Origin: a virus
Lineage: Duplodnaviria > Caudoviricetes
Virus record (IMG/VR): IMGVR_UViG_3300021400_003144
Length of the DNA: 64,000 nucleotides
Direction: 5' to 3' (one strand)
In this document: piece after piece, positions 9,799-56,592 of the stretch
Position numbering within the stretch: the first letter of the stretch is position 1
Layout: every line of letters begins with the position of its first letter
Position numbers and translations under genes: made by a program
Notes under the pieces: generated by a model
Databases searched by the model: none
Seen by the model: only the letters and a program-made list of their open reading frames with translations
Told to the model about the DNA's origin: nothing

Positions 9799-10029
9799 AT
9801 GTTTAATCTAGTAGAAAGTGGAAAGTTACTTAAAAAGTTGATTAAAGAGTCAAAGTATTCCATGAGAGAAATCTGTAAGATGCTTAATATAAGTAGAACA
9901 GCTATGTATGCTTGGTTCAGAGGTGAGTCACTGCCATCACTTGATAACTTATTCTTTTTAGCTGAGATACTTGATAAGAGACCAGATGAACTAATAGTTT
10001 ATGAGAGTATTTTAGACAGAGTAGCATAA
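9799..10029 (+). CDS. XRE/Cro-family helix-turn-helix regulator
   Basis: SMREICKMLNISRTAMYAWFRGESLPSLDNLFFLAEIL matches the HTH_3 pattern. Confidence 0.9.
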   Translation: MFNLVESGKLLKKLIKESKYSMREICKMLNISRTAMYAWFRGESLPSLDNLFFLAEILDKRPDELIVYESILDRVA

Positions 10030-29167: not shown

Positions 29168-30094
29168 GTGGACCCTTGTAATAGGGATTGAATTTATTTC
29201 TGTGAGTAACCACATCCTCATAAAATTGAAGAACCCTGCAATAGGGATTGAATAATTTCTGTTACTCTCATATTTAGCATCCAATTAAGTGAACCCTTTG
29301 ATAGGGATTAAATCTTATTTTACACTAGTTCAACCACATGATGATTAAAGAACCCTTCTAATAGGGATTGAGCTTGGTACATTTTGTTATCTTCCTTTAA
29401 ATAAATGAGATGAACCCTTGCAATAGGGATTGAGTAGTCTTATTTAGAAGAGTAGAATGCTGATATTTTGAGTGAACCCTTATAATAGGGATTGAGTTAA
29501 TTGAAAATTAACATTAATATTCATATTCATGATAGTGAACCCTTTAATAGGGATTGATTACCTATACACAATGTCGTAGGCTTGAATGAAGTGAACCCTT
29601 TAATAGGGATTGCATAGGCGAAAAATGTAAAATCATCAAAGTTCTTATTGAACCCTTTAATAGGGATTGCATGGTCAATATTTGCGTTGTTAATTACTAC
29701 TAATAAAGTGAACCATTCTAATGGGGATTGAATAGTACATAATAATGTTTAAGGTTATGTCATATAACAGGAAACCCTTATAATAGGGATTGAATCAGAA
29801 GAGGTGGAAGGCCAACTTTGGACATTTCAAGTGAACCCTTATAATAGGGATTGCATCTATTTTCGTAGTTCCAAATTGCCTTTAATTTAAGAGAACCCTT
29901 GCAGTAGGGATTGCATTAATAGAGACAAAGCGCTCTGTCTATTTTTCTAAAGAACCCTTTAATAGGGATTGTATCATTTCTATCATGTTTTCGAGGTCTG
30001 AACGTTTTAGAGAACCCTTTAATAGGGATTGCATATGCTGATGATTTTTAAAATCACCAAGAGGAAAGTAAGAACCCTTGTAATAGGGATTGTA
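29168..30094 (+). CRISPR. CRISPR array 1: 16 degenerate repeats, 15 unique spacers
   Basis: GAACCCT-(5-6 nt)-AGGGATTG recurring about every 60 bp (29168, 29228, 29289 ... 30070); 3' end resembles the ATTGAAA(C/G) handle. Confidence 0.92.
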
Positions 30095-35349: not shown

Positions 35350-37227
35350 ATGGTAGACGAAAAATGTAAAGAGCTTTATATAGCAGGTCTACTCCATGAT
35401 GTAGGTAAGTATATACATAAGACTAATGGCAATAAGGCTTCTCATGAGATATTATCTCAGTTGTTTATTTTAGATAATCCTGAGATTTGTATTGGGGCTG
35501 ATGTTGAGAAAATAGCTAACATTGTAGCCAATCATCATGACAGAGGAAAGTATGATAAAAGCTTTGTAGGAAATTTAAAGATAACTCCTGATAAAGTGGT
35601 GTCTGCTGAACTTTGTAAGAAAGCTTATGATAACTATAAGTTGGACTGCTATAAGAGTGAGATAGACATTATTAAAAAGGCTGATAGCTTATCAGCTTCA
35701 TCAGACAGAGCATCTGAGACTGGAGAGTCAGGAAATGGAACAAGTGCTCCATATGCTCCACTAATATCTCCTATTGGAAAAGTATTCAATAAGAGATTAG
35801 CAGTAAGACATGGTAATTCTTACTGTGTTTACAACTTTAGTGGGGATACTGATACTAAAGAAGTTATCATGGAGCTTGATAAGAATTGTGATGAACATAT
35901 AGAGAGTTCCTTTGAGTCTTTCATGAATGACATAAAGGCTATAAAGAGTCTGAATGACCTTGATGATATTCTGAAAAAGCATTGGTCAACTGTCAATGCC
36001 AATACATGGAGACCTAAGGGAGAATCTTTAGGAAACACAACTACTTCCTTGTATGACCATAGTAAAACTACAGCGGCTTTGGCTGTAGGGGCATATCTAA
36101 ATAAATGTGCTGGTGTGGCTGTGGATGATATGTTTGTTTACAGAGTAGTATACAATGGAAATAACAGAAGTCTTGAGGATATTGTTGATAATCTTTTGAA
36201 TGAGATTGGACTATCTCAGTTACATGTAATAAGTTCTACTGATGATGAGGTTTATGCAATTATACCTTATATAAAGTCATTAGAATTTGTAGAAGGTCTG
36301 AGTAAAGAGAACATAATATCTTTTAAGGATTTTGGAGAGACAATAGACTACTTTGTAGCTAAGCATTGGAAATTTAAGGGTTGCAGAGATTCTTTTAGAG
36401 ATAGACTTGGAGAGTGTCAGTATGGTATAACTAAAGTCTTAGGTAAAGTAGATGCAGGCATTGGAGCTGATACTTATATAGCAGATAGACTTGATAGTAA
36501 GTTTATAGGTGGCTATGTAATAGATGGTTATGACTATATACTTGAACATGTACTAACTGAGAATGACTCCATTAGTAAGCTGAGTACTACCTTTAGAATA
36601 TTTGAAGCATTTAATAGAGAAGTAACTAAACTTCTTGACAACAAGGGTAAAATGGTACTCAAGTCTGAACTTGATAAGACTATTTATTCAGCTGATAACA
36701 TTGAGGAAGTGCATAGGATTGAAGTAGAGATACAGTCAATATTTGAGAAGTACTTCGGAGATGCTACAGGGTTGTACTTTACATACTCTAAGTATGACAG
36801 ATATAGCAATACAGTAGAAATGTTGGACAGAGAATTTAATACTAGAGGTGCTAGTCTGAATATTGAGAAGAAGCTTCAGAATGGAGGTCTGTACACTACA
36901 GTTCTTATAGATACTAAGAGATATAAGATAAATAGTTTAAAGATATATAATGAATATGTTGGGTATCTGAGTAAGTGTGATAAATCCTTCTTGTATAAAG
37001 CAAAGCAGATGTATGATGAGCTGTTTAAGTATAACATTGATAAAGACCCTATACATCTTGTAGCTAAGTCAAGACTGTACTATATGAAGTCAAAGGCAGA
37101 TGGAAATAAGGTAAATGTACTTAATGAGATATATAAGTGTGCATTTGATTCTGCAAAAGGTCAGATTAGTGATAATGCATACATAATATATGAAGCATTA
37201 AAAAATGTGTTAACCAATGTGAAGTAA
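35350..37227 (+). CDS. cas10: Divergent, shortened Cas10/Csm1: HD nuclease intact, cyclase GGDD absent
   Basis: AGLLHDVGK, ANHH, KADSLSASSDR, SLYDHSKTTAALA are Csm1 hallmarks; no GGDD anywhere in 625 aa. Confidence 0.85.
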   Translation: MVDEKCKELYIAGLLHDVGKYIHKTNGNKASHEILSQLFILDNPEICIGADVEKIANIVANHHDRGKYDKSFVGNLKITPDKVVSAELCKKAYDNYKLDCYKSEIDIIKKADSLSASSDRASETGESGNGTSAPYAPLISPIGKVFNKRLAVRHGNSYCVYNFSGDTDTKEVIMELDKNCDEHIESSFESFMNDIKAIKSLNDLDDILKKHWSTVNANTWRPKGESLGNTTTSLYDHSKTTAALAVGAYLNKCAGVAVDDMFVYRVVYNGNNRSLEDIVDNLLNEIGLSQLHVISSTDDEVYAIIPYIKSLEFVEGLSKENIISFKDFGETIDYFVAKHWKFKGCRDSFRDRLGECQYGITKVLGKVDAGIGADTYIADRLDSKFIGGYVIDGYDYILEHVLTENDSISKLSTTFRIFEAFNREVTKLLDNKGKMVLKSELDKTIYSADNIEEVHRIEVEIQSIFEKYFGDATGLYFTYSKYDRYSNTVEMLDREFNTRGASLNIEKKLQNGGLYTTVLIDTKRYKINSLKIYNEYVGYLSKCDKSFLYKAKQMYDELFKYNIDKDPIHLVAKSRLYYMKSKADGNKVNVLNEIYKCAFDSAKGQISDNAYIIYEALKNVLTNVK

Positions 37228-37236
37228 GGAGTATAC

Positions 37237-37719
37237 ATGGACGATAATTATTTAAAGGAAATCAAGTCTGGATATACAGACAATGGTGTAGCTAAGCTGA
37301 GTCTGATTGATGGATATCCTCAGAAGTTAGCTAAGGAGTTTAATGAAGCAACTCCAATGTTGTCAACAAAGCAATCAAGAAGTATCTTTGATACTGTGAA
37401 TGGACTTGAGGTTAAGCTTCGTAGAAAGTCAGTATCATTTGATGAAGTCAAGATTGAACTTGGACTACTTAAGTCTAGAATAAATGATAAGGTTAATAAG
37501 GGAAGTATCCCTAAGGTATTCTTTGAGTTCTTTGAGGAAAATATTAAAGCCATTAAGAATGAAAAGGATTTACAGGTGTTTAAGATTCATCTTGAGTCAA
37601 TTTGTAACTATCTCAAGGATGATAAGCAGACTGGAAATAACGGAAGCTACAATAAGGGTACAGGCTATAATGGAAATTATAGACCTAGAACAAATGGATA
37701 TAATAACAATAGAAGATGA
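37237..37719 (+). CDS. csm2: Csm2 (Cas11) small subunit
   Basis: LSTKQSRSIFD and F..HLESICNY resemble Csm2 (T.Q.R.FF, F..F.EA...Y); lies between cas10 and csm3. Confidence 0.8.
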   Translation: MDDNYLKEIKSGYTDNGVAKLSLIDGYPQKLAKEFNEATPMLSTKQSRSIFDTVNGLEVKLRRKSVSFDEVKIELGLLKSRINDKVNKGSIPKVFFEFFEENIKAIKNEKDLQVFKIHLESICNYLKDDKQTGNNGSYNKGTGYNGNYRPRTNGYNNNRR

Positions 37720-37736
37720 AAGTGAGGATATAAATT

Positions 37737-38375
37737 ATGATTAAGGAGCAGATTAAGATTACAGGTGTACTTACAACAGAGTCAGGTATACATATTGGTG
37801 GTACTAAGTCAGACTTAGGAATTGGTTCTATGGACAATCCGGTTGTTAGAGATGCTCTTACAAATAGACCTTATATTCCTGGTTCATCCATTAAGGGAAA
37901 GATGAGAAGTATGTTTGAGCTTAGTGGTTTTGCTAAGGGCAAGACATTACCTTGTGGCTGTGGTGATAAGGATTGTATCGTATGCAAGCTCTTTGGTGCT
38001 CATAGAAATACCAAGTCTGAAGCAGGTCAGACAAGAGTAATGTTCAGAGATGCTTATTTATCACCAGAGTTTGAGAATCTTGATAACACTATTGAAGTTA
38101 AGACTGAGACAGCTATTGATAGAAGGACTGGTACAGCTCAGAATGGTTCTCTGAGACAGAGTGAGAGAGTTGCAGCAGGTGTCAATTTCAACTATGAGAT
38201 TAGCATTCTTGTATGCGATGGAGACAATGCTGATGAGCTTAGGGCTATGGTTGAGAATGGTCTTAGAATGATTGAGGCTACAGGTCTTGGTGGTAAGGTA
38301 TCAGCTGGATATGGTAAGGTTAACTTCAATATTGGTGCTGATTCTTATAAGGTAGAAACTAGGAAGTTTAATTAA
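37737..38375 (+). CDS. csm3: Csm3 (Cas7) backbone RNase
   Basis: GIHIGG, IGSMDNPV (catalytic Asp kept), PYIPGSSIKGKMRS, Cys cluster, ETAIDR, GLGGKVSAGYGKV. Confidence 0.95.
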   Translation: MIKEQIKITGVLTTESGIHIGGTKSDLGIGSMDNPVVRDALTNRPYIPGSSIKGKMRSMFELSGFAKGKTLPCGCGDKDCIVCKLFGAHRNTKSEAGQTRVMFRDAYLSPEFENLDNTIEVKTETAIDRRTGTAQNGSLRQSERVAAGVNFNYEISILVCDGDNADELRAMVENGLRMIEATGLGGKVSAGYGKVNFNIGADSYKVETRKFN

Positions 38376-38387
38376 AGAGGTGTACAG

Positions 38388-39089
38388 GTGTTATATAAAA
38401 TAGAACTTCAACAGAATACGGCTACAATAGGTAATGTTGTAGCCAATACATTATTTGGGGCTTTTCTAACAGCTTATTCAACTATATATACAGTTGATAA
38501 GGACATGATAGATGATATTGTATTATCTGATTTATTTTATAATAACATCTTACCTAAGGGTGTTATTAATAATAAAACAGTGTTCTCAAAGCCTTTTGAA
38601 CATACTCAGATAGAAATGTCAAGAGCTCTTATAGCAAGAGATAATGAATCAACTAATGTTGTAAATAATACTGTTGGTAATATTGATAAGAAATGTTCAT
38701 TCTTTATTAGTACTAAGTTACTTGATAAGAATGACATTGAGGAAATAGTCAAGCTTATGTGTGAGTTTGGTATAGGCAAGTGGAGAAATGTTGGTAAAGG
38801 TCAATTTGAATTTAAGAGCATAGAGGAATATGTACCAAAGACAGATGTAAAGAGATTTGTATGTTTAAGTAGTTTTATTCCGGACTGTGATATAAACGAT
38901 TATGACATCAGTTCTTTAGGTTATACAATTAGAGATGCCTATGCTACCAATGGTATTAAACAGAAGCAGACTATAATGCTTCTGACAGGAACAAGTTTCA
39001 GAACATTCAGAGAAGTTGTTGGAAAGCATGTATATGATGAGAATAGCAATACTTATATACATGGTAAATCAATAGTGATTGGAGTTTAA
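38388..39089 (+). CDS. csm4: Short Csm4 (Cas5) subunit
   Basis: NTLFGAF, LSDLF, glycine loop GIGKWRNVGKGQF. Confidence 0.8.
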   Translation: MLYKIELQQNTATIGNVVANTLFGAFLTAYSTIYTVDKDMIDDIVLSDLFYNNILPKGVINNKTVFSKPFEHTQIEMSRALIARDNESTNVVNNTVGNIDKKCSFFISTKLLDKNDIEEIVKLMCEFGIGKWRNVGKGQFEFKSIEEYVPKTDVKRFVCLSSFIPDCDINDYDISSLGYTIRDAYATNGIKQKQTIMLLTGTSFRTFREVVGKHVYDENSNTYIHGKSIVIGV

Positions 39090-39090
39090 G

Positions 39091-39717
39091 ATGGTTTATA
39101 GATTAGAAAAACTTATTTCAAGTGGAGAAAAAGCAACTAAGGATTTAGGTATTCTTAGCAATATGATATCTAATGCAGAGAATGTGCATGGAATCCTTGG
39201 AGAGCTTTTTAACTTAGAGAATGAGCAGAACTGGAGAGCTAATCATCATATTTTATACAGAAGAGAGACAAATAAGACTTGTGAATTTATTGTTAGATCT
39301 GATGTAGAAATTGATATGAATAAGGCTAAAGAGCTTGGTTTCAGTGTAAAGACAGAAAAAGAAGTTCCAATGACTGGTGTTGTAAAAATCAGACTTGCAG
39401 CGGCTACCTTTAGAACAGAGAAAGGCTCATCAAGTCGTAATAGAAAAGCTATTAAGCTTCAGGATGATAGAATTAACTGGATTAAGTATAAGTTATCCAG
39501 TAAGGGTGAATGTGAAGTTTATGATGTAAATGAAGTAGGCAAGGTAATGAATTTCATGTCTCATAAGGATACAGCTAATGGGCAGGTAATGCTTGAGGGT
39601 TATGATTATGAGGTTAGTCTTAAGGTCAAGGATTCAGAAGGGTTTAAAAAGCTTGTAGAGAATGGTGTAGGACCCAATAAAAACTATGGGTTTGGAATGA
39701 TAGTCTGTAGTGAATAA
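39091..39717 (+). CDS. cas6: Cas6 endoribonuclease of the Cas6e (Cse3/CasE)-like type
   Basis: H...ILYR, IRLAA, NWI..K, L.V.D...F..LVENGVGPNKNYGFGMI; ATG 39091 after GGAG (ORF track start 39079). Confidence 0.8.
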   Translation: MVYRLEKLISSGEKATKDLGILSNMISNAENVHGILGELFNLENEQNWRANHHILYRRETNKTCEFIVRSDVEIDMNKAKELGFSVKTEKEVPMTGVVKIRLAAATFRTEKGSSSRNRKAIKLQDDRINWIKYKLSSKGECEVYDVNEVGKVMNFMSHKDTANGQVMLEGYDYEVSLKVKDSEGFKKLVENGVGPNKNYGFGMIVCSE

Positions 39718-47527: not shown

Positions 47528-48274
47528 ATGAGTAAGAAACTTAAAAGAAGCATAGAGTCATTTTTTATAGCCCTTGTATTTCTCATAATGATAGCTCCTA
47601 TTGCTATGGTGTTCTCTGAGTGGAAAAATATTAGCATAGCTGAACTTGAAGCCATTAGTGGTTGGGCTCAGACAGTTATGATTATGTCAATAGCAATACC
47701 ATTTATATTAGTGATATATAGTAAGTTAACTAAGAGTTTATGTAGCTACTTCGGTATGCTAGTGCTGAGCATTGGTTTAATGATAGCTACTATACCCTCT
47801 GCTCTATCAAATATAGAAAAAATACCTATAGGATATAAGAATGTGCGTGCTAGGGGTGGAGTTATAACAGTTGATAGTGTTGATGAAGCTACCTATAATA
47901 ACTGGTTAGGCAATAGAGATATAGAGTTTTTCATTGGTAAGAATAAGGCTGAAGAATTTGTTATAGATAGTGTAGCAGAGTTAAATGAACTTGGAGCTGA
48001 ATGGATAGATGATAAGCTAGTAGTAAATTCAGAGAAGTTCAGTGATGAATATAGATTAACATGGTTAAAGAGAGGAATAAGCAGAAGTTTGTTAGCTTCA
48101 TACATATTGATTTTATTTGAACTTTTAGAATTTATAGCATGGAGGTATATAAATAAAAAGTTAGAAGCTGGAGATACAGTATTAGGCATTAAATCAGAGA
48201 GTGAAACAGATGATAATAATGTAAAAACTGTGAGAAAACAATTAGAAGCAATGAGTAAAATAGCAACTCGTTAA
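47528..48274 (+). CDS. Multi-TM membrane protein
   Basis: AGGAGG RBS; four hydrophobic segments. Confidence 0.65.
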   Translation: MSKKLKRSIESFFIALVFLIMIAPIAMVFSEWKNISIAELEAISGWAQTVMIMSIAIPFILVIYSKLTKSLCSYFGMLVLSIGLMIATIPSALSNIEKIPIGYKNVRARGGVITVDSVDEATYNNWLGNRDIEFFIGKNKAEEFVIDSVAELNELGAEWIDDKLVVNSEKFSDEYRLTWLKRGISRSLLASYILILFELLEFIAWRYINKKLEAGDTVLGIKSESETDDNNVKTVRKQLEAMSKIATR

Positions 48275-48285
48275 ATATAGAGTCT

Positions 48286-48322
48286 AAATACACTAACCTG
48301 TTAAAAGGGTTAGTGTATTTTT
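48286..48322 (+). terminator. Rho-independent terminator
   Basis: AAATACACTAACC / GGTTAGTGTATTT plus T. Confidence 0.85.
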
Positions 48323-48420
48323 ATGTATAAACTAAATGTCTTGTTGAATAGCATTATAAGCTAGTAAATAGTAGTTATTAAATTTTAAAATAAAATTTTA
48401 AGTTTATTTATGGGGGCAAC

Positions 48421-50718
48421 ATGAGCAAGACATTAGACTTTAGTAAAGATAAGGAGCTTATAAGACAGGATAGTACTGGTGAATATATAGAAGTAACATT
48501 AAATGTTAAGAAAGCTTTTGGAAAAGGTCGGTTATATAGTGATGGTAGCATGCTGATAGAAGAAGGACACTATAAAGCATGTGTACCTAGTGCAAATGAA
48601 GTATTCAAAAAGGCATACAGAAGTGACTTAGGTTTAAATGCAGATTCTGATGGTGATATTAAAAATATAAGAGTTGGAAGTGCATCAGGAGCAGCTAATA
48701 TCTTAGTGGGTGGTTTAAGTTCAGGTTATATTGTTTGGAAAGACAAGAAAGATAGGATTGTAGACTTTTATAGAGATACACATAATGAAAAAAGTGAAAC
48801 ACCTAAGAAAAGAGTAATTGCAGAGGTATTAGACCAAAAACCTCGTAGAAAGAATATAGGAACAGAAGGAAAGCCTTTAGAGACACTTGTAAATCCTGAT
48901 GTAAAGCAGATATTAGGTGATAAAGTTCATCTTGAAGAAGGTGATGAACTTACATGGTATAGAGATGCAAATATAAATATAATATGGCATACAGATGGCT
49001 CCTGTGATTTATTTGAGAGGGAGCACATAGGGATTTGTGGGGCTGTCTTTAGGATAGTGTATGGACACTGGAGAGGTAAGGGTGAGCATGGTTCTGGAAT
49101 GGAGCCTCAGCATTGGATATATAAAGGTATCAAAGTTTCTGATATTTTAAATGTTTATCCTAATTTTTGGAAAGCATGCGAAAATAGCCTAGATTATGGA
49201 GATAACACAGAAGCTGAGGATAACAGGAGTTATGAAATGGGCAGAACAAGCAATAAAGAAGCAGTTGATAAAGAAGGTGTAACTAAAGAAGCTGTTAGGC
49301 AACCTAAGTATTACTATGAGTCAACTAGGCTAAAATATAGAACAACAAATTCTGATGTACAATGCAGTGCTGTTAGAGATATTAATAAGATAAAAAGTCA
49401 ACTGTTTTATGAAGGTAGCAATAGCAATCAAGACACACCTTGGAAAATAGCAGAAGATATGATAGACCTACTTCCAGAAAGTGTATGGAATCCTCATACA
49501 AAGTTCTTAGACATCTATTGTAAGAGTGGTATATTCTTAGAAGTTATAAAGAATACACTTAAAGATAAATGTTATGAACAGTATAGAGAAATGGGATTAG
49601 CAACAGATACAGAGATAAACAAGTATATATTTGAGAATCAATTATATGGATTATGTTGGTCAAAAAGAAATTATGAATATACAGCTGAGAGTTTATTCAT
49701 GGTTAGAAGTCCTATGAATAGCTATAATATAAAGAAGTTAAGTGAAGTACTTAAGGCAGAAGAAAATACAGAAATATTAAAAGATGAACATGACGGAAAT
49801 ACGGATGAATACATAAAGAGAGATTATGTAACATTGGGATTGATTAAGAAATACAGGAAAAAGAATGAATATACAGGAGAAGATGAAATGACAATAGATG
49901 TAGTAGTAGGAAATCCGCCATATAACAAAGATATATACATTGACTTTGTAGAGAATGGGCATAAGATTGCAAGACAATACTGCTGTTTCATAACACCTGC
50001 CAAGTGGCAAGCCAAAGGTGGAGAAAAGAACGAGTCATTTCGTAAGAATATAGTTCCTCACATGAGTAAGATCGTTTATTATCCTAACACACCAGATGTA
50101 TTCTTTATAGGGGAAGCTGCTGGAATATCAGCATACAGAATAGATAAAGAAATATATGAAAAGAAAAAATTAGTTGTTAAAAGTAGCATACCAATTCTTA
50201 GGGGTAGCTGTGAGTTAACACATGATATGCCATTAGATATATGTGGGTGGAATATTATTAACAAAGTAAAAGGAAAAAGGATGTCTCTCAAAAATTATAA
50301 CACTGATAAGAAGTATAAAGTTTGGGTTAATAATCTTGTTGGACTTAGTGGTGGAGGCGGAGATTGGCACACATGTCTGTTTTCCAGAGACGGAAAGACT
50401 AATTTTTTAGGGAAGGTATCTTTATCAACATGTCTAGAAGAAGAAAAGAAAATGACTTTTAATCAGAAATGCTGTTTTTCATCAGACACTAAGATAGCAT
50501 GTGAAGCATTTAAGGCATATATATATACAAGGCTAGTTAGATTCTTACTTTATATAGGAAGGTGTGGTAACTCTGTAACAAATGATGAGACATGGCGTTT
50601 CGTCCCCGATCCAGGTGCATTTGACCACATCTTCACCGACCAAGAGTTATACACTAAATATAAATTGACTCAAGAAGAAATCAATGTAATTGAGTCAGTT
50701 ATAAAGGAGCGTAAGTAA
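48421..50718 (+). CDS. N6-adenine DNA methyltransferase (Eco57I-like) with N-terminal DUF4357-like and RAMA-like domains
   Basis: TP..IAEDM, KFLDIYCKSG.FL, VVGNPPY, ITPAKW, WRFVP, D.ELY.KY.L; SASGAA..VGG..SG...WKD at the N terminus. Confidence 0.85.
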   Translation: MSKTLDFSKDKELIRQDSTGEYIEVTLNVKKAFGKGRLYSDGSMLIEEGHYKACVPSANEVFKKAYRSDLGLNADSDGDIKNIRVGSASGAANILVGGLSSGYIVWKDKKDRIVDFYRDTHNEKSETPKKRVIAEVLDQKPRRKNIGTEGKPLETLVNPDVKQILGDKVHLEEGDELTWYRDANINIIWHTDGSCDLFEREHIGICGAVFRIVYGHWRGKGEHGSGMEPQHWIYKGIKVSDILNVYPNFWKACENSLDYGDNTEAEDNRSYEMGRTSNKEAVDKEGVTKEAVRQPKYYYESTRLKYRTTNSDVQCSAVRDINKIKSQLFYEGSNSNQDTPWKIAEDMIDLLPESVWNPHTKFLDIYCKSGIFLEVIKNTLKDKCYEQYREMGLATDTEINKYIFENQLYGLCWSKRNYEYTAESLFMVRSPMNSYNIKKLSEVLKAEENTEILKDEHDGNTDEYIKRDYVTLGLIKKYRKKNEYTGEDEMTIDVVVGNPPYNKDIYIDFVENGHKIARQYCCFITPAKWQAKGGEKNESFRKNIVPHMSKIVYYPNTPDVFFIGEAAGISAYRIDKEIYEKKKLVVKSSIPILRGSCELTHDMPLDICGWNIINKVKGKRMSLKNYNTDKKYKVWVNNLVGLSGGGGDWHTCLFSRDGKTNFLGKVSLSTCLEEEKKMTFNQKCCFSSDTKIACEAFKAYIYTRLVRFLLYIGRCGNSVTNDETWRFVPDPGAFDHIFTDQELYTKYKLTQEEINVIESVIKERK

Positions 50719-50755
50719 TATGTATTAATAATTAATTTATACATAGAATAAAAAG

Positions 50756-50837
50756 AGTACCCCTTATAATGGGGATTGAATATATTTTTTATACAGCTCT
50801 TCATCTGTGAAAATAGAACCCTCGTTGGGGATTGAAT
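50756..50837 (+). CRISPR. CRISPR mini-array 5: 2 repeats, 1 spacer
   Basis: ACCCCTTATAATGGGGATTGAAT and GAACCCTCGTTGGGGATTGAAT. Confidence 0.8.
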
Positions 50838-50880
50838 TTATTATAGGTAATAACATTAAGTTTGGGAGGAAAGTTTAAGT

Positions 50881-51327
50881 TTGAGTCAAAATAGCATAGT
50901 GAGATTAAGTAAAGACAATATAAATGAGCTTCTTGATTTTTGTAAAGGAAAATATCCATTAACAAAAGAAGTTGCTCATAATATATGTATAGGAACACAT
51001 CCTGTTAATCCTTGTACTCAAGTTTATGGTGTATTTTATAATGAAAATGGAAAAAGTGAGCTTGTAGCAATAATGACTGCAACATATAGCATTGTATTTC
51101 CGCACGAAGATGGAACTAGAATAGTACATATTAGTGGGGCATATACAAAAGATAATTTCAGAAATAGGGGATATGCATCTGATTTGTTAAAGGCTATCGA
51201 AAGAGATGCAAGGGATTATTTTCATGCAGATTATATGTGTTGTGATTCAATAGCAAATGAACTATATAAGAAAAATGGATTTAAAGAACCAGATGTAGAG
51301 ACAAGATTGTGGAAACAATTATCTTAA
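50881..51327 (+). CDS. GNAT family acetyltransferase
   Basis: YT...FRNRGYASDLL and A..LYKKNGF. Confidence 0.88.
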   Translation: MSQNSIVRLSKDNINELLDFCKGKYPLTKEVAHNICIGTHPVNPCTQVYGVFYNENGKSELVAIMTATYSIVFPHEDGTRIVHISGAYTKDNFRNRGYASDLLKAIERDARDYFHADYMCCDSIANELYKKNGFKEPDVETRLWKQLS

Positions 51328-51426
51328 CTTAAAATATAGCATTGAACAGGGTTTAATCAGATAAACTACTGAGAAAGATAAAGAAGCATGATGTAAAAAC
51401 AAGTGTTTAAATGGAGGCTAGATAAA

Positions 51427-52086
51427 ATGGATAATAGTGATAGGATTAAGCAGTTAGAGAGAATAGGAGTATCACCTGACAATACAACTAACTACACTGA
51501 TGGTATAGTTAACCCATATAGAAGTGTAGCATTAGCAATGATAGAGCGTGGTGAAGCAGTTCCAAATGACTTAGTAGAGCAGATAAATTACTTTGATGGC
51601 TGTAAGGTAAATACACAGGCTGAAGTTCAGGAGGATAATGTTTCAAGTGAGCTTGTAGAACAGGTAGATAACTTTGATAGTGAAAGTGATATACAGGCTA
51701 AAGTTCATGAGAACAGAGAACTTACCATTGGTTTAAATTTAATGCCAGTACTAATTATGCTTATGCTAATAACTGTACTTGGATGGTCTAGAAATACACT
51801 TAAGGAAAATACTCCGTATAATAGAATAACGGAGTTTGTATCAAGATATAACTTAAGTATACCAGAGGATAAGATTACAGAGACTATTGAAAGTATTGAT
51901 AGTAAGTTTAAAGATAACAAAATAGCTGTTGTAGAATTAATAGATGCCAATGGAAATATTAATACTTATGCACTAGATGGTACATATGTATATAGAGGAG
52001 CTGTACAATCTGAAAAATTCACTGGTATATTTAAAGTAAAAGATGATGGTTCATATGAGACAGTAGAGAGACAGGTAGAAAATTAA
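51427..52086 (+). CDS. Membrane-anchored hypothetical protein
   Basis: GGAGG RBS before ATG 51427; short internal repeat LVEQ.(N/D).FD...(T/I)QA.V. Confidence 0.6.
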   Translation: MDNSDRIKQLERIGVSPDNTTNYTDGIVNPYRSVALAMIERGEAVPNDLVEQINYFDGCKVNTQAEVQEDNVSSELVEQVDNFDSESDIQAKVHENRELTIGLNLMPVLIMLMLITVLGWSRNTLKENTPYNRITEFVSRYNLSIPEDKITETIESIDSKFKDNKIAVVELIDANGNINTYALDGTYVYRGAVQSEKFTGIFKVKDDGSYETVERQVEN

Positions 52087-52134
52087 GAGTCAGCAAGTGC
52101 TAGACAATAAAAGCATGACAATAAAAGGCTGGGC

Positions 52135-53484
52135 TTGAATATGAGTATTATTAATTTTGAAAATAGGACAAGGTGGATACGTGATTATAACATAGCTAAG
52201 ACTTGTACGCCTATCAAAATAGCAAGAGATATGGTAAGTTTAATTGATGAAAAGTATTTCAATCCAGATTCAAAGTTTTTAGACATATATTGTAAGTCTG
52301 GAACAATACTTGAAGCCATAAAAGATAGATTAATGGATTCTAAAAGTATGATTGAAGCTTTTCCAAGTCAAAGAGATAGATATTATCATGTATTAGAACA
52401 TCAGATATATGGATTAGTATGGGAAGATGTAGGCATTAATTGTGAAGAAATGTCTAATATAAATGTATTTGGTACATATGTAAATAGTAACATAAAGATG
52501 TTTAAAATAGCTTCAAAGAATAAAAAAGACGCATATAAGATATTGGATAATATAACATTTTTTAAGGATGAGATACAGAAGATTTTTGGAGAAAAGGATA
52601 TGAAGTTTAACATAGTAGTTGGAAATCCACCATATAACAATGATGCATATCTTGACTTTGTTAAAGCAGGTTATCAACTTTCAACTCAGTATAGTACATT
52701 TATAACTCCTGCTAAATGGCAGGCTAAGGAGGGGTACAAGAATGAGCAGTTCAGAGAGACCATAGTTCCTCATATGAGCAAGATAGTTTATTATCCAGAT
52801 TGCGTTGATGTATTTGGAATATCAGAATTAGGTGGAATTTCTTATTACACAATTGATAAAAATAATATACACGATACTAAAGATATAATAAATAAATGCG
52901 AACTCCAACCTTTACTAAATAGCAGTATGAACAGGGAAATAAATAGTACCCTTTGGAATAGTGCACAAAGCATAATAGAAAAAATAAAAAGCAGTGATGA
53001 TTATAAATTATATGTATTACAGGACATAAAACAAAATAGAAAAACTTGTACAATAAACATAAATAAGCAAATTCCTACAGAGCGTAGTCATATATGGGAT
53101 TGGAATAATTCATGTATAGACCCAAAGTATGTAGGTCATGGTGGTTGCTTACTAAATAAAAATGATGGTAGTACACCATTACTTGGCAGAGCAAAATTTT
53201 TAAGGCATGCTGAAAATGGCTCAGGTACTTCAATAAATATATTTACATCAGATAGTGAACTTGAATGTAGGTCATTTACATCATGGGTTTACAGTAAGTT
53301 TATAAGATTTTTATTAATAATAGCATTATGCAGTAACTCAGTAATGAATGATATTACGTGGCGTTTTGTACCAGACCCTGGTAAATTTGACCACATATTT
53401 ACAGATAAAGAACTTTATGAAAAATACAATCTGACAGAAGATGAAATCAATATCATTGAGTCAATAATTAAGGAGCGTAAGTAA
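52135..53484 (+). CDS. Second N6-adenine DNA methyltransferase (Eco57I-like), paralogue of 48421
   Basis: KFLDIYCKSG, VVGNPPY, ITPAKWQAK, WRFVPDPG.FDHIFTD.ELY, IES.IKERK. Confidence 0.88.
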   Translation: MNMSIINFENRTRWIRDYNIAKTCTPIKIARDMVSLIDEKYFNPDSKFLDIYCKSGTILEAIKDRLMDSKSMIEAFPSQRDRYYHVLEHQIYGLVWEDVGINCEEMSNINVFGTYVNSNIKMFKIASKNKKDAYKILDNITFFKDEIQKIFGEKDMKFNIVVGNPPYNNDAYLDFVKAGYQLSTQYSTFITPAKWQAKEGYKNEQFRETIVPHMSKIVYYPDCVDVFGISELGGISYYTIDKNNIHDTKDIINKCELQPLLNSSMNREINSTLWNSAQSIIEKIKSSDDYKLYVLQDIKQNRKTCTININKQIPTERSHIWDWNNSCIDPKYVGHGGCLLNKNDGSTPLLGRAKFLRHAENGSGTSINIFTSDSELECRSFTSWVYSKFIRFLLIIALCSNSVMNDITWRFVPDPGKFDHIFTDKELYEKYNLTEDEINIIESIIKERK

Positions 53485-54249
53485 ATGATATCACAATCAG
53501 TTATACTTGAAGAAATTGATAATGGGTGCTATGGTTGTTATGCTAAAGGCACTGATGGAAATAAGATTAAGAACAATGAAGGTGTTAAAAACCTATTAAT
53601 GAATGAGATAAAGACTCTAGAAGATTTAGAGTCTTTAAATAATATAAATGAATATGAAGTAGATAAGGCATTCTTAGACAAAATGAAGTATATCAAAGAG
53701 CATAAGAATGAAACTGATAATCTGATATATACAGGTGGGTTGGACTTCTTCAAAGGTTTAAAGAAAGCACTTGAAGATGGAGTTGCTGGTGACTTAGCAG
53801 ATTTGAAAGAGTGGCAGGCACTTAAAGAACAAACAGAGGCTGATATTAATGAAAAACTTAGCAAGGCTGATGCTAATGAAGCTGATGAAGAGATTGAGAA
53901 TCTTAGGAAGGAACTTGCTGATGCTCAGACTGAAATTAAGAAAATTGAAGATAAATTTAATGATGAACGTGACAACTTCATGGAGCACTATGTAGTTCCT
54001 GAGACTCAAGATACTACAGATGAATTACCTGCAAGTGTAGCTGAGGGTTTATGTTCTGATGATATTTACATTAAGAAAACAGCTAAGGCTATTGTTATTT
54101 TAGGGGTAAATAATATGTCTAGAGCATTTAGAGCTGATGATGGATATACTAATGTAAAGAAAAGACAAGATGAGAAAGCTTATAACACAATGTTTAAGTT
54201 AATGACACGAAAGAGATTTTCAGAGAAATATAATATATTCTTTATTTAA
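53485..54249 (+). CDS. Hypothetical coiled-coil protein
   Basis: Starts immediately after the MTase stop. Confidence 0.65.
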   Translation: MISQSVILEEIDNGCYGCYAKGTDGNKIKNNEGVKNLLMNEIKTLEDLESLNNINEYEVDKAFLDKMKYIKEHKNETDNLIYTGGLDFFKGLKKALEDGVAGDLADLKEWQALKEQTEADINEKLSKADANEADEEIENLRKELADAQTEIKKIEDKFNDERDNFMEHYVVPETQDTTDELPASVAEGLCSDDIYIKKTAKAIVILGVNNMSRAFRADDGYTNVKKRQDEKAYNTMFKLMTRKRFSEKYNIFFI

Positions 54250-54267
54250 TAATTAGGATGGGCAAAG

Positions 54268-55494
54268 TTGATTATGGATAACAACATTGATTATGAGAGT
54301 GAACTTGTTGACAAACTTATTGATGCAGTTTTCTTTGATGAGAATAAGACAAATACATCTGATAAGAATGATAAAGTATCTGAAGCAGAACACTCAGATA
54401 ATTCTGATAAAGCAAAAGAAGCTGATAAAGCAAAAGAAGCTGATAAAGCAAAAGAAGCTGATAAAGTAAAAGAGGCTGAGCATTCAGATAAATCAGATGA
54501 AGCAAGCAAGGCTGAAGAAACAAATGCATCTGACAAGGCTAAAGAAGCTGTTATAGCTGATGAAGTAAGACAGTTAACAGATGAGCAAACAGAACAAATA
54601 ATAAATGCTCTTGCAGATAAGATAGCTAATGGAGATAGAGCTGATATTCTAAAGCAGATAGCTAAGAAAGTGAATGAGATAAACCTTGAAAATCAGTGGG
54701 AATATACTCCTAATGAAAGTACAGGTGAGTTTAATACAAAAGATTTATATGAAGATTCTACTATAACAGCTGCTAGAGACATATTAAATAAATCTCATAG
54801 ACTCCTTATATTAGGAAGTACAGGTACTGGAAAGACAGAGTTAGCTTATCTGTTAGCTCATAAGTTTACTGGTGAAGCTGTTGCTAGTGGAGATATTAAG
54901 CTGTCAAAAGTATGTGTTATAAATGCTAGAGATGGTAAGAGCATATGGGTAGATGATGTTAACACTGAGAGATATGTAGGTGAACTAAATAGATTTAATG
55001 AGTATATAAAGAAAAATAATGAAACAGCAAGTGATGAGGCTGAGACTTGTAAATATGTGCTCATATGCAATGAAATACAGGCAAGTGATGCAGGGTATTT
55101 GTTAGGAAGTCTTTGGGAAGATGCAAATAACTCTGAAAAGAAGCTTAATAAACTTGAGGATAACCTTTATATAATCTTTACTGCTTGTACTGACCAGGAT
55201 TTTGGTATAGATGACCAGATTAAACAAAGAATAAACAGTGTTGATGTTGGTTATATAAGTAGTAAGTATCAAGATAAGCATAAAAAGATAGTTGAAGCTT
55301 ATAAAGATAAATGTAGTAACATTGAAGAAATACTTAATAACATTGAATATATAAATGATAAAGAAGAGTATTCAATTATAACTATGAGAAAGTTTATGGG
55401 TTTATTAAATGGTGAGGGTATAGAGTTCAGTGATTATATAAAAGAAACCTATAAAGATGAGGTTAGTAAAATAAAAATTAAGCAAGCAGGGTAG
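54268..55494 (+). CDS. Divergent McrB-like AAA+ NTPase
   Basis: Walker A GSTGTGKT; YVLICNEIQ for DEINR; NLYIIFTAC.DQD for NLYIIGTMN..D. Confidence 0.7.
   Translation: MIMDNNIDYESELVDKLIDAVFFDENKTNTSDKNDKVSEAEHSDNSDKAKEADKAKEADKAKEADKVKEAEHSDKSDEASKAEETNASDKAKEAVIADEVRQLTDEQTEQIINALADKIANGDRADILKQIAKKVNEINLENQWEYTPNESTGEFNTKDLYEDSTITAARDILNKSHRLLILGSTGTGKTELAYLLAHKFTGEAVASGDIKLSKVCVINARDGKSIWVDDVNTERYVGELNRFNEYIKKNNETASDEAETCKYVLICNEIQASDAGYLLGSLWEDANNSEKKLNKLEDNLYIIFTACTDQDFGIDDQIKQRINSVDVGYISSKYQDKHKKIVEAYKDKCSNIEEILNNIEYINDKEEYSIITMRKFMGLLNGEGIEFSDYIKETYKDEVSKIKIKQAG
54404..54475 (+). repeat. 18-bp in-frame tandem repeat, 4 copies
   Basis: CTGATAAAGCAAAAGAAG encoding (DKAKEA)n. Confidence 0.9.
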
Positions 55495-55503
55495 GTAAAG
55501 TTT

Positions 55504-56592
55504 ATGGGTCATGTTATAAGTGATGATACAGTTGTTGAAATGATAAGTTACCTATCTGGATTAAAGAAGAGCGATGTAAAGAGTGGCTCAAATCTTAAAG
55601 AATTGTTGAAAAAGACTATAACTGATTTAGCTAGAAAGTTATATTTGAGAAATGAGCTGTATCTTAAAAAAGCAGACATAAAGTATGATAGTGTAGAACA
55701 TATATTAAATAAGAACGGAATCTTTAGATTTAAGAGTAATGCAATAATATATAAGACTCTTAAAGAGATAGGTGGAACAGTATATTTTGATGATACTAAT
55801 GATAAAAGCAGCTCTTCTGAGGTGAATAAATCAGATGATAGCAGTAGTGAAGCAGACAAATCTAAAGAGTTTAAAGATGCTAATAACAGAAGAGTTATAG
55901 CTACAATAGCTGATAATCTTACTGAATCTGATTGGGATGTAACCTTTAGAGCTGGTTCTAAAGATAGATTGAGTTTATTGAGACTATGCAGGATGTATCA
56001 TAGGCAAGAACTGATATCAGATGTAAAGACAAAAAATCATGCAGAAGCAGTTAAGGTTGCATGGGAAAGAGAATGTGACTTATTCGAGGAAGTTATTAGA
56101 AAGCATACAGTTGATAAATTTAAGGGTAATGATATAAATGTTAGTGATACTAATAAAATAGTAAGTATTAACAGTAAAGAAAAACCATATGCTCTTAGTC
56201 TTGAGACAGATATAATTGTAAAGAGTCCTAATAAACTGATAATTATAGACTGTAAGGTTTATAAGAACATAAAGTCATGGTCACATGGTAAGCCTAAGTA
56301 CAGGTCTAATGGCAATAGATTCCAAGTCAATAGCTATATAGGAAGTGCATTACAGAAAGAAGAATATAAAAGAGACTTAGCTGAAGGCATTTTAGTTCAT
56401 TTAGTACCTACTGATGCTGATGAAGATACAATGAAGATGCATCAGGCTAACTTAACAATAGAAGATGAAAGACCTATAGAGTTATGGGTTATACAGGACA
56501 AAGGTTTAAATAGTATTTTTAAGGAGTATGATGAACTGCTAAGAACAAAGTTAGAAGCAGAGCAGGATGAAGATAAGGCTGAGATAAGCTAA
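55504..56592 (+). CDS. McrC-like PD-(D/E)xK nuclease
   Basis: LFEEVIR, LETDIIV, IIIDCKVY, NRFQVNSY; follows the McrB-like gene. Confidence 0.7.
   Translation: MGHVISDDTVVEMISYLSGLKKSDVKSGSNLKELLKKTITDLARKLYLRNELYLKKADIKYDSVEHILNKNGIFRFKSNAIIYKTLKEIGGTVYFDDTNDKSSSSEVNKSDDSSSEADKSKEFKDANNRRVIATIADNLTESDWDVTFRAGSKDRLSLLRLCRMYHRQELISDVKTKNHAEAVKVAWERECDLFEEVIRKHTVDKFKGNDINVSDTNKIVSINSKEKPYALSLETDIIVKSPNKLIIIDCKVYKNIKSWSHGKPKYRSNGNRFQVNSYIGSALQKEEYKRDLAEGILVHLVPTDADEDTMKMHQANLTIEDERPIELWVIQDKGLNSIFKEYDELLRTKLEAEQDEDKAEIS

Follow-up and report, generated by a model that had tools for sequence, protein, structure and literature searches.

A two-repeat CRISPR array between the methyltransferase genes of a probable large phage carries a spacer antisense to their gene family

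The window analyzed here is a stretch of 64,000 nucleotides that corresponds, in reversed orientation, to positions 58873-122872 of a 282,865-bp metagenome scaffold in ENA. Its G+C content is 32%, its long open reading frames lie nearly all on the + strand, and its accessory genes are of phage type, e.g. a polynucleotide kinase-RNA ligase fusion and a tellurite-resistance-like gene; the element is probably a large phage or phage-like genome. A megablast comparison of 25 kb of the window with phages gave no match, and Rfam and tRNA scans of the window were empty.

At the locus under study, two methyltransferase genes enclose a CRISPR mini-array and two further genes (Table 1), and the + strand is the transcribed strand of all neighboring genes. 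PF07669 and a conserved C-terminal module, WRFVPDP..FDHIFTD.ELY.KY.L..EEI..IES.IKERK, identify the two flanking products as predicted Eco57I-type N6-adenine DNA methyltransferases (proteins P0001 and P0006, both found on the 282,865-bp contig); an identical methyltransferase 1 is encoded on two other contigs. The hairpin upstream of the operon is the sole + strand terminator-like site within 48000-54500. The mini-array starts 38 nt past the stop codon of methyltransferase 1 and no + strand terminator lies between that stop codon and the next genes, so the array is probably part of the operon transcript. An McrBC identity for the two genes after the methyltransferases (54268-56592) was not confirmed by Pfam, which reported an nSTAND3-type NTPase (E = 4e-7) and a weak NERD nuclease match (E = 0.004).

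Table 1. Coordinates of the features discussed, as positions in the window
Feature	Position	Strand	Remarks
Effector operon: HD-Cas10, Csm2, Csm3, Csm4-like, Cas6e-like	35350..39717	+	Pfam and NCBIfam
Terminator-like hairpin upstream of the methyltransferase operon	48286..48320	+	14-bp stem, then T run
Methyltransferase 1, predicted Eco57I-type N6-adenine, 765 aa	48421..50718	+	PF07669 E = 1.3e-16; weak DUF4357; N-terminal extension
Resident protospacer-like site 1 (IFTDQELYTKY)	50628..50662	+	25/35 identity; 10/34 mismatches to guide, one G-U
Repeat 1 of the mini-array	50757..50781	+	Hairpin CCCC-TTATAAT-GGGG (50760-50774), then tag ATTGAAT (50775-50781)
Spacer	50782..50815	+	Guide reads as the + strand and is antisense to methyltransferase mRNA
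Repeat 2 of the mini-array	50815..50837	+	Hairpin CCCT-CGTT-GGGG, then tag ATTGAAT
GNAT acetyltransferase gene	50881..51327	+	PF13508, PF00583; directly after the mini-array
227-aa gene between the methyltransferase genes	51403..52086	+	No Pfam or NCBIfam match
Methyltransferase 2, predicted Eco57I-type, 449 aa	52135..53484	+	PF07669 E = 7.6e-11
Resident protospacer-like site 2 (IFTDKELYEKY)	53394..53428	+	27/35 identity; 8/34 mismatches, 2 G-U

The single spacer of the mini-array measures 33-34 nt and runs from 50782 to about 50814/15, its 3′ border being uncertain by 1-3 nt; base 50781, which the original prediction had included, is the last T of the repeat tag and hence lies outside the spacer proper. 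The other 34 spacers extracted measure 28-44 nt. Both repeats keep an intact hairpin through compensatory stem changes, together with the exact ATTGAAT tag, and the hairpin of repeat 1 is present in the centroid fold. They match the repeats of the element's own arrays, a family of about 45 copies in the window (consensus GAACCCTTnnAATAGGGATTGAAT), all on the + strand and grouped in about nine loci between 29.2 and 63.8 kb with spacings of 54-69 nt. Stem and ATTG.AT tail are conserved throughout the family and the loops are variable; the repeats are short (about 25 nt) and heterogeneous, and the arrays are dispersed, in the 3′ regions of ordinary genes. The segment 50782-50815 is a genuine CRISPR spacer between two repeats of the element's own family. 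Searches with the repeat pattern returned one chance match in 185,579 species genomes and none in IMG/VR, and the large array had no meaningful match in INPHARED.

The five-gene effector operon of the window begins with a Cas10 of 625 aa, whose HD domain (PF01966, E = 6e-8) has its HD motif at residue 16 and whose match to the Csm1 model TIGR02578 covers residues 8-250 only, with a score below the cut-off. Neither this protein nor 37 homologues contain a GGDD/GGDE motif, and the N-terminal HD motif is kept in all 38 family members. Csm3 scored 182 bits against TIGR02582 (cut-off 90), Csm2 31.7 bits (cut-off 30.6) with a Pfam match in addition, and the Csm4-like protein 47.3 bits, under its cut-off of 55; the Cas6e-like protein and the HD domain were recognized by Pfam. 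The Asp of the Csm3 motif GSMDNPV aligns with that of GAIDSPV in the solved Csm3 structure 6ifn_F, the catalytic residue for RNA cleavage. Judged from these protein signatures, the effector is a predicted RNA-cleaving type III-like complex. No CARF or SAVED ancillary gene was recognized in or beside the operon, and no Cas1-Cas2 genes were found near it or elsewhere in the window.

A search of IMG/VR and INPHARED returned no relatives of this Cas10. The Cas10 family (about 620 aa, HD-positive, GGDD absent) occurs on contigs of up to 430 kb, and the gene order Cas10-Csm2-Csm3-Csm4-like-Cas6e-like is conserved in the lineage (L037, 10001-17050; L034, 4539-10500; L036, 10001-15500). Part of the lineage also encodes an I-E-type Cas2, with or without Cas1. 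On the 396-kb contig L037, Cas2 and Cas1 follow the Cas6e-like gene and precede a polarized 25-repeat array, whose first four repeats are identical and whose later ones decay; other relatives carry arrays of 13-19 repeats. Since relatives combine Cas1-Cas2 with a polarized array, the lineage does acquire spacers, and the element of the window has either lost its adaptation genes or keeps them elsewhere. The hairpin repeats of the relatives' arrays (13-25 repeats) are likewise heterogeneous.

As originally predicted, the spacer is antisense to the 3′ ends of the two flanking methyltransferase genes: the reverse complement of 50781-50815 reads T-ATT-TTC-ACA-GAT-GAA-GAG-CTG-TAT-AAA-AAA-TAT-A, encoding IFTDEELYKKY, and the nucleotide identities claimed for both resident sites (Table 1) were confirmed. 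Most differences are indeed synonymous, namely 7 of 10 in the upstream gene and 6 of 8 in the downstream gene by a codon count made by eye. The two resident sites are the two top scores for the spacer reverse complement on the + strand of the whole window, and these 3′ coding ends of two non-cas genes are its sole matches there. Of 300 shuffled versions of the spacer, one reached a best window-wide score of 26, fifteen reached 25 and the rest 24 at most, a control in which the real matches beat or equal nearly all shuffles. The two genes are paralogues and the sites correspond in both position and reading frame; two such in-register, in-frame matches are not due to chance. A peptide-level scan, covering the 32 of 35 extracted spacers that had a stop-free frame, gave z = 7.6 for the mini-array spacer and no value above 2.2 for any other; the nucleotide scan agreed, and the idea that other spacers of the window have resident homologues was rejected on both.

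Homology to the methyltransferase family amounts to 24-30/34 inside the spacer and falls to 1-4/24 and 7-9/24 in the flanks, whichever family member is compared. Such a stop at the repeat borders fits a captured spacer, and an inverted gene remnant was rejected on this ground. The protein tables of the 283-kb contig list no third family member of 245-1339 aa, so the source of the spacer was probably foreign. By sequence comparison, the spacer appears to have been captured from the conserved 3′-terminal module of a gene of the same family as the flanking methyltransferases, and all that the synonymous bias shows is a functional donor gene subject to purifying selection.

No perfect protospacer was found in IMG/VR, in 241 million metagenome records, in INPHARED or in PLSDB; exact protospacer 30-mers numbered zero in IMG/VR, and the PLSDB spacer search gave chance matches only. 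A degenerate FTDEELYKKY pattern retrieved 29 loci from the metagenome collection, which lacks the source contig itself, and one from IMG/VR, none of them perfect. Every one of these loci is the 3′ end of an open reading frame ending in ...WRFVPDPG.FDHIFTDEELYKKYNLT.EEINIIESVIKERK. Methyltransferase 3′ ends are also where a near-perfect database hit had originally been expected; the best alleles (L004 and L014) have 4/34 mismatches (30/34, numbered from the tag) and several others 5. Alleles obtained by protein look-ups, including two probably from related phages, match at 26-29/34, and a human-gut phage contig in INPHARED (MT835565) has a 26/27 match at the 3′ end of the gene for a 511-aa methyltransferase. 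A search of IMG/VR with the downstream-module pattern IIESVIKER returned zero hits.

The contexts of the near matches are mixed: phage-like, an McrBC defence island, tandem module reading frames by a resolvase, and plainly bacterial. The target may, as originally proposed, sit on a competing relative, but the near-match contigs have nothing in common with the window except the methyltransferase, and the best, 4-mismatch allele lies on a contig of 2.4 kb. Relatives or likely relatives carry the family at no more than 26-29/34, namely L037 (same cas operon), L040 (same DUF285 genes upstream of the methyltransferase) and L039 (only phage-like). The methyltransferase genes of L037 lie 3 kb after the cas locus with no repeat beside them, and those of L040 and L039 are followed by the next gene about 10 and 54 nt past the stop codon, which leaves no room for a mini-array.

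Among 156 family representatives (50%-identity clusters retrieved with the methyltransferase 2 tail as query), IFTDEELYKKY is the commonest 11-mer, with 46 occurrences (24 of 103 in a second sample). The resident versions also occur elsewhere in this set, IFTDKELYEKY five times and IFTDQELYTKY once. The 11-mer varies much only at positions 5 and 9, the very positions at which the two non-synonymous resident differences fall. Over the 111-nt tail module, pairs of external alleles have a median nucleotide identity of 77%, and the residents compared with external alleles have medians of 73-78%, with best external matches of 81-83%. The spacer is 71-89% identical to alleles encoding the same peptide and 71-77% identical to the residents; both ranges are ordinary family divergence. 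The further claim that the resident copies escaped the guide by silent divergence therefore gains no specific support: their distance from the spacer is about that between any two members of the family.

Codon usage was in line with this. The tail of methyltransferase 1 (50551-50670) has a GC3 of 0.47 over 30 codons, the 99th percentile of the window, but the value for its 111-nt module is 0.41 and the norm of the family is 0.38-0.49 in most alleles; synonymous recoding of the methyltransferase 1 site was rejected, C-rich codons being the family norm over the module. The same module of methyltransferase 2 has a GC3 of 0.23; the tail of methyltransferase 1 may be a later gain, or that of methyltransferase 2 may have shifted to the codon usage of the element. 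IFTNEELYKKY is the version found in P0222, which at 85% identity is closest to the methyltransferase 2 tail, and 3 of its 8 differences over 70 residues fall inside the 11-residue site, a weak hint of escape that we count as not significant.

The last ~40 codons of family members (50593-50703 and 53359-53469 in the window; L003-L031) are conserved at the nucleotide level and are also found on short reading frames, on tandem reading frames in L019, as a 30-aa fragment in L022 and L031, and repeatedly within one predicted protein (P0037). The tail module looks like a shuffling junction for target-recognition domains.

Whether residents and foreign alleles would be told apart was approached through predicted duplex energies, which refer to free RNA. 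A perfect target gave -47.9 kcal/mol, the best external allele -41.8 and other external alleles -27 to -34, against -15.1 for site 1 and -22.6 for site 2; the background had a mean of -9.2 and a minimum of -22.2. Perfect runs between the guide and the residents are at most 6-7 nt long, with dispersed mismatches. Published tests summed up in a preprint (bioRxiv 10.1101/2023.09.03.556089) showed type III-A to tolerate several mismatches per 10-nt segment and to need a duplex of roughly 25 bp. By inference, alleles with 4-5 mismatches could plausibly be targeted, whereas the resident genes are probably not hit, with the reservation that site 2 (8 mismatches, 2 G-U) is not safely beyond type III tolerance.

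We lean, by a little more than even chances, towards the reading that the mini-array supplies the type III-like system with a hard-wired guide, aimed at those members of the element's methyltransferase family that it does not itself carry, the residents being spared by ordinary divergence. The mini-array would be transcribed within an operon of methyltransferase 1, mini-array, GNAT gene, 227-aa gene and methyltransferase 2; the Cas6e-like nuclease would cut the guide out at the two hairpin repeats, and the guide, with its 5′ AUUGAAU tag, would be loaded into the Csm-like complex. This complex would pair with transcripts of non-resident family members on co-infecting phages, mobile elements or host islands, whereupon Csm3 would cleave the RNA and the HD nuclease of Cas10 would attack the transcribed DNA. 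No cyclic-oligoadenylate signal would be made, and 8-10 dispersed mismatches would spare the resident genes.

The original idea of a third, foreign allele as target thus holds in part: it is backed by the genuine spacer, its antisense orientation, the type III-like effector and the position of all near matches at family 3′ ends, and no perfect allele was found in the collections searched. The added suggestion that silencing a rival's methylase could expose it to restriction appears needless, as an HD type III effector would be expected to destroy any target that is transcribed, DNA included. That the target encodes a methyltransferase probably matters little, the module serving as a conserved, expressed sequence shared by many rivals.

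A guide antisense to methyltransferase mRNA has the orientation required for RNA targeting by type III systems. The purine fraction over all spacers is 0.47, compared with 0.595 for sense and 0.405 for antisense coding sequence; the spacers are only partly polarized, which fits a majority, not all, being antisense to coding DNA, and for the mini-array guide the orientation argument rests on one spacer.

It is unlikely, though less so than the other alternatives, that the guide is a fossil, captured once from a foreign family member, with its target gone or the unit unused and its location due to chance or to hitch-hiking of a cassette. With no Cas1-Cas2 near the operon or in the window and with heterogeneous, degenerate repeats, an old spacer with an extinct target is conceivable. 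The failure to find a perfect target in any of the collections searched suits such a history, as do the differences between the two repeats of the mini-array and the roughly 1 in 9 chance that random placement among nine array loci would put it beside homologues. Several features argue against decay: both repeats have kept hairpin and tag, the effector genes are intact, the reverse complement of the spacer is open and still encodes the commonest motif of the family, and many living alleles stand at 4-5 mismatches.

The adjacency to the methyltransferase genes is suggestive, not decisive; it would suit either a cis-regulatory role or a linked cassette of a guide plus immune alleles. A specific version of the latter, in which the mini-array and its two mismatched flanking alleles form a linked, RNA-guided allelic-exclusion cassette against incoming rival copies, strikes us as doubtful. 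If true, the transcripts and, through the HD nuclease, the DNA of a rival restriction-modification-like module would be destroyed after co-infection or recombination, and the guide would be kept by the protected alleles for joint inheritance.

Improbable, in our estimate, is a regulation of the element's own methyltransferases, an alternative that had been raised from the outset as mismatch-tolerant tuning and that could work through a weak, mismatched guide or through pairing in cis with the methyltransferase 1 3′ end, affecting processing or stability. The adjacency is natural for a cis regulator, given the 38-nt distance in the same operon with no terminator between, and in both the minimum-energy and the centroid fold of 50615-50845 the spacer is predicted to pair with the methyltransferase 1 3′ end about 120 nt upstream. 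This fold has z = -2.2, with 6 of 200 shuffles folding as well, and we regard the pairing as a weak, expected by-product of the antisense similarity. Complementarity to the residents is poor, with energies within or just beyond the background; a regulatory guide should fit its own target more closely than foreign ones, and the reverse is seen (30/34 foreign, 24-26/34 resident). An active HD nuclease would, moreover, make self-recognition dangerous. The cr-like RNAs reportedly have guides that match cas promoters or 5′ regions and repress transcription, whereas here non-cas genes are partly matched, at their 3′ coding ends, and the fit to foreign alleles is far better. What the two have in common is a very short array with a spacer partly complementary to genes of its own genome. 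Regulatory RNAs of this kind, from stand-alone repeats and mini-arrays whose partly matching spacers regulate cas genes, are known (bioRxiv 10.1101/2023.03.03.530964) and offer a precedent.

Quite improbable, too, is counter-defence, in which the preferred mechanism would be aimed at a restriction-modification system or defence island of the host or a prophage that includes this methyltransferase family. Phage CRISPR systems directed against host defence elements are established (PMC11656645), and two of the near-match contigs fit: L025 carries a UvrD helicase, two Eco57I-type genes, an AAA_5 ATPase and McrC, and L031 has LacI and metabolic genes beside a module fragment. The family is also found in phage-like contexts, however, as in L011 with a lysozyme, MT835565 and L039/L040; knock-down of the methyltransferase alone would not relieve restriction; and with the repeat absent from the species genomes searched, no link to a host can be drawn. 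It is hardly credible that the segment is a non-CRISPR feature, i.e. an inverted remnant or recombination site of the methyltransferase 3′ module, for example for switching of target-recognition-domain cassettes, for although the module is conserved in nucleotides across otherwise divergent genes (the 77% median), its tandem reading frames adjoin a resolvase in L019 and one predicted 2081-aa protein (P0037) matches a 63-aa tail query in 14 separate stretches, the homology here starts and stops at the repeat borders, the length equals that of other spacers (31-44 nt), 24-26/34 identity to the residents is too low for homologous exchange and no recombinase gene was recognized among the scanned neighboring genes.

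The guide against non-resident methyltransferases would be a variant of a known theme, that of virus-borne mini-arrays in inter-element conflict. The Saccharolobus portogloboviruses SPV1 and SPV2 carry mini-arrays that act in inter-virus conflict (PMC11656645), and the resemblance extends to a viral array of one or two spacers, to a spacer resembling a type of gene carried by related viruses and to the proposed role, the exclusion of co-infecting rivals. Their arrays copy host repeats and borrow host Cas proteins, whereas the present repeats belong to the element's own type III-like system; no exact target virus was found for the present guide, and its unit is embedded in an operon with a resident homologue of the target on either side. 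What sets it apart is this combination of an own effector, an operon-embedded unit and a position between target homologues.

Huge (jumbo) phages known from metagenomes also encode CRISPR-Cas systems, some of them without adaptation or nuclease modules (PMC11656645). The element shares with them a large, phage-like contig of 283 kb with its own effector and arrays and no adaptation genes nearby, and the same operon recurs in relatives on contigs of up to 430 kb; it differs in its roughly nine dispersed loci of short (~25 nt), heterogeneous repeats and in the pairing of an HD-positive, cyclase-dead Cas10 with a Cas6e-like nuclease. Inactivated Cas10 cyclases characterize the type III subtypes III-C, III-F, III-G and III-H (PMC12669027), with which the present system agrees in a Cas10 without GGDD, a retained HD domain and no recognized CARF/SAVED gene in or beside the operon, and from which it departs in a Csm3 that retains its Asp and in the I-E-type Cas1-Cas2 and long arrays of some relatives.

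The mini-array spacer is the only one of the 35 extracted with a nameable target class, and it provides a first handle on the aim of an HD-only, type III-like phage system with dispersed, operon-embedded arrays. The targets so named are sense transcripts from a conserved gene family, of which the element has diverged copies of its own. An active guide would mean that the virus directs a mismatch-tolerant, RNA-guided nuclease to the best-conserved stretch of a widespread gene and yet keeps its own copies safe. For measuring that tolerance a simple test set is at hand: a perfect target, natural alleles at 4-5 mismatches and the resident sites at 8-10. Should the guide be linked on purpose to the spared alleles, it would represent a new form of gene-cassette conflict, at present a possibility only.

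Some observations concern the arrays of the window at large. Many repeat loops (29160-63810) read TATAAT, TGTAAT or TGCAAT, similar to the -10 box of a promoter. The 16-repeat array has one spacer (29436-29471) in common, at 31/32 nt, with an array (9979-10015) of L034, an element distinct from the present one although of the same study; the two Cas10 proteins are only 51% identical, and the spacers adjoining the shared one differ; the shared spacer, not found in IMG/VR, indicates a conserved target or an exchange of array pieces. The short-loop variant of repeat 2 is seen again at 63241, where a two-repeat unit (63139-63320) has the same pair of repeat variants as 50757-50837, first a long loop and then a short NGTT loop. 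Its 75-nt interval apparently includes an eroded middle repeat, and the unit ends in a strong terminator-like hairpin (63283-63314).
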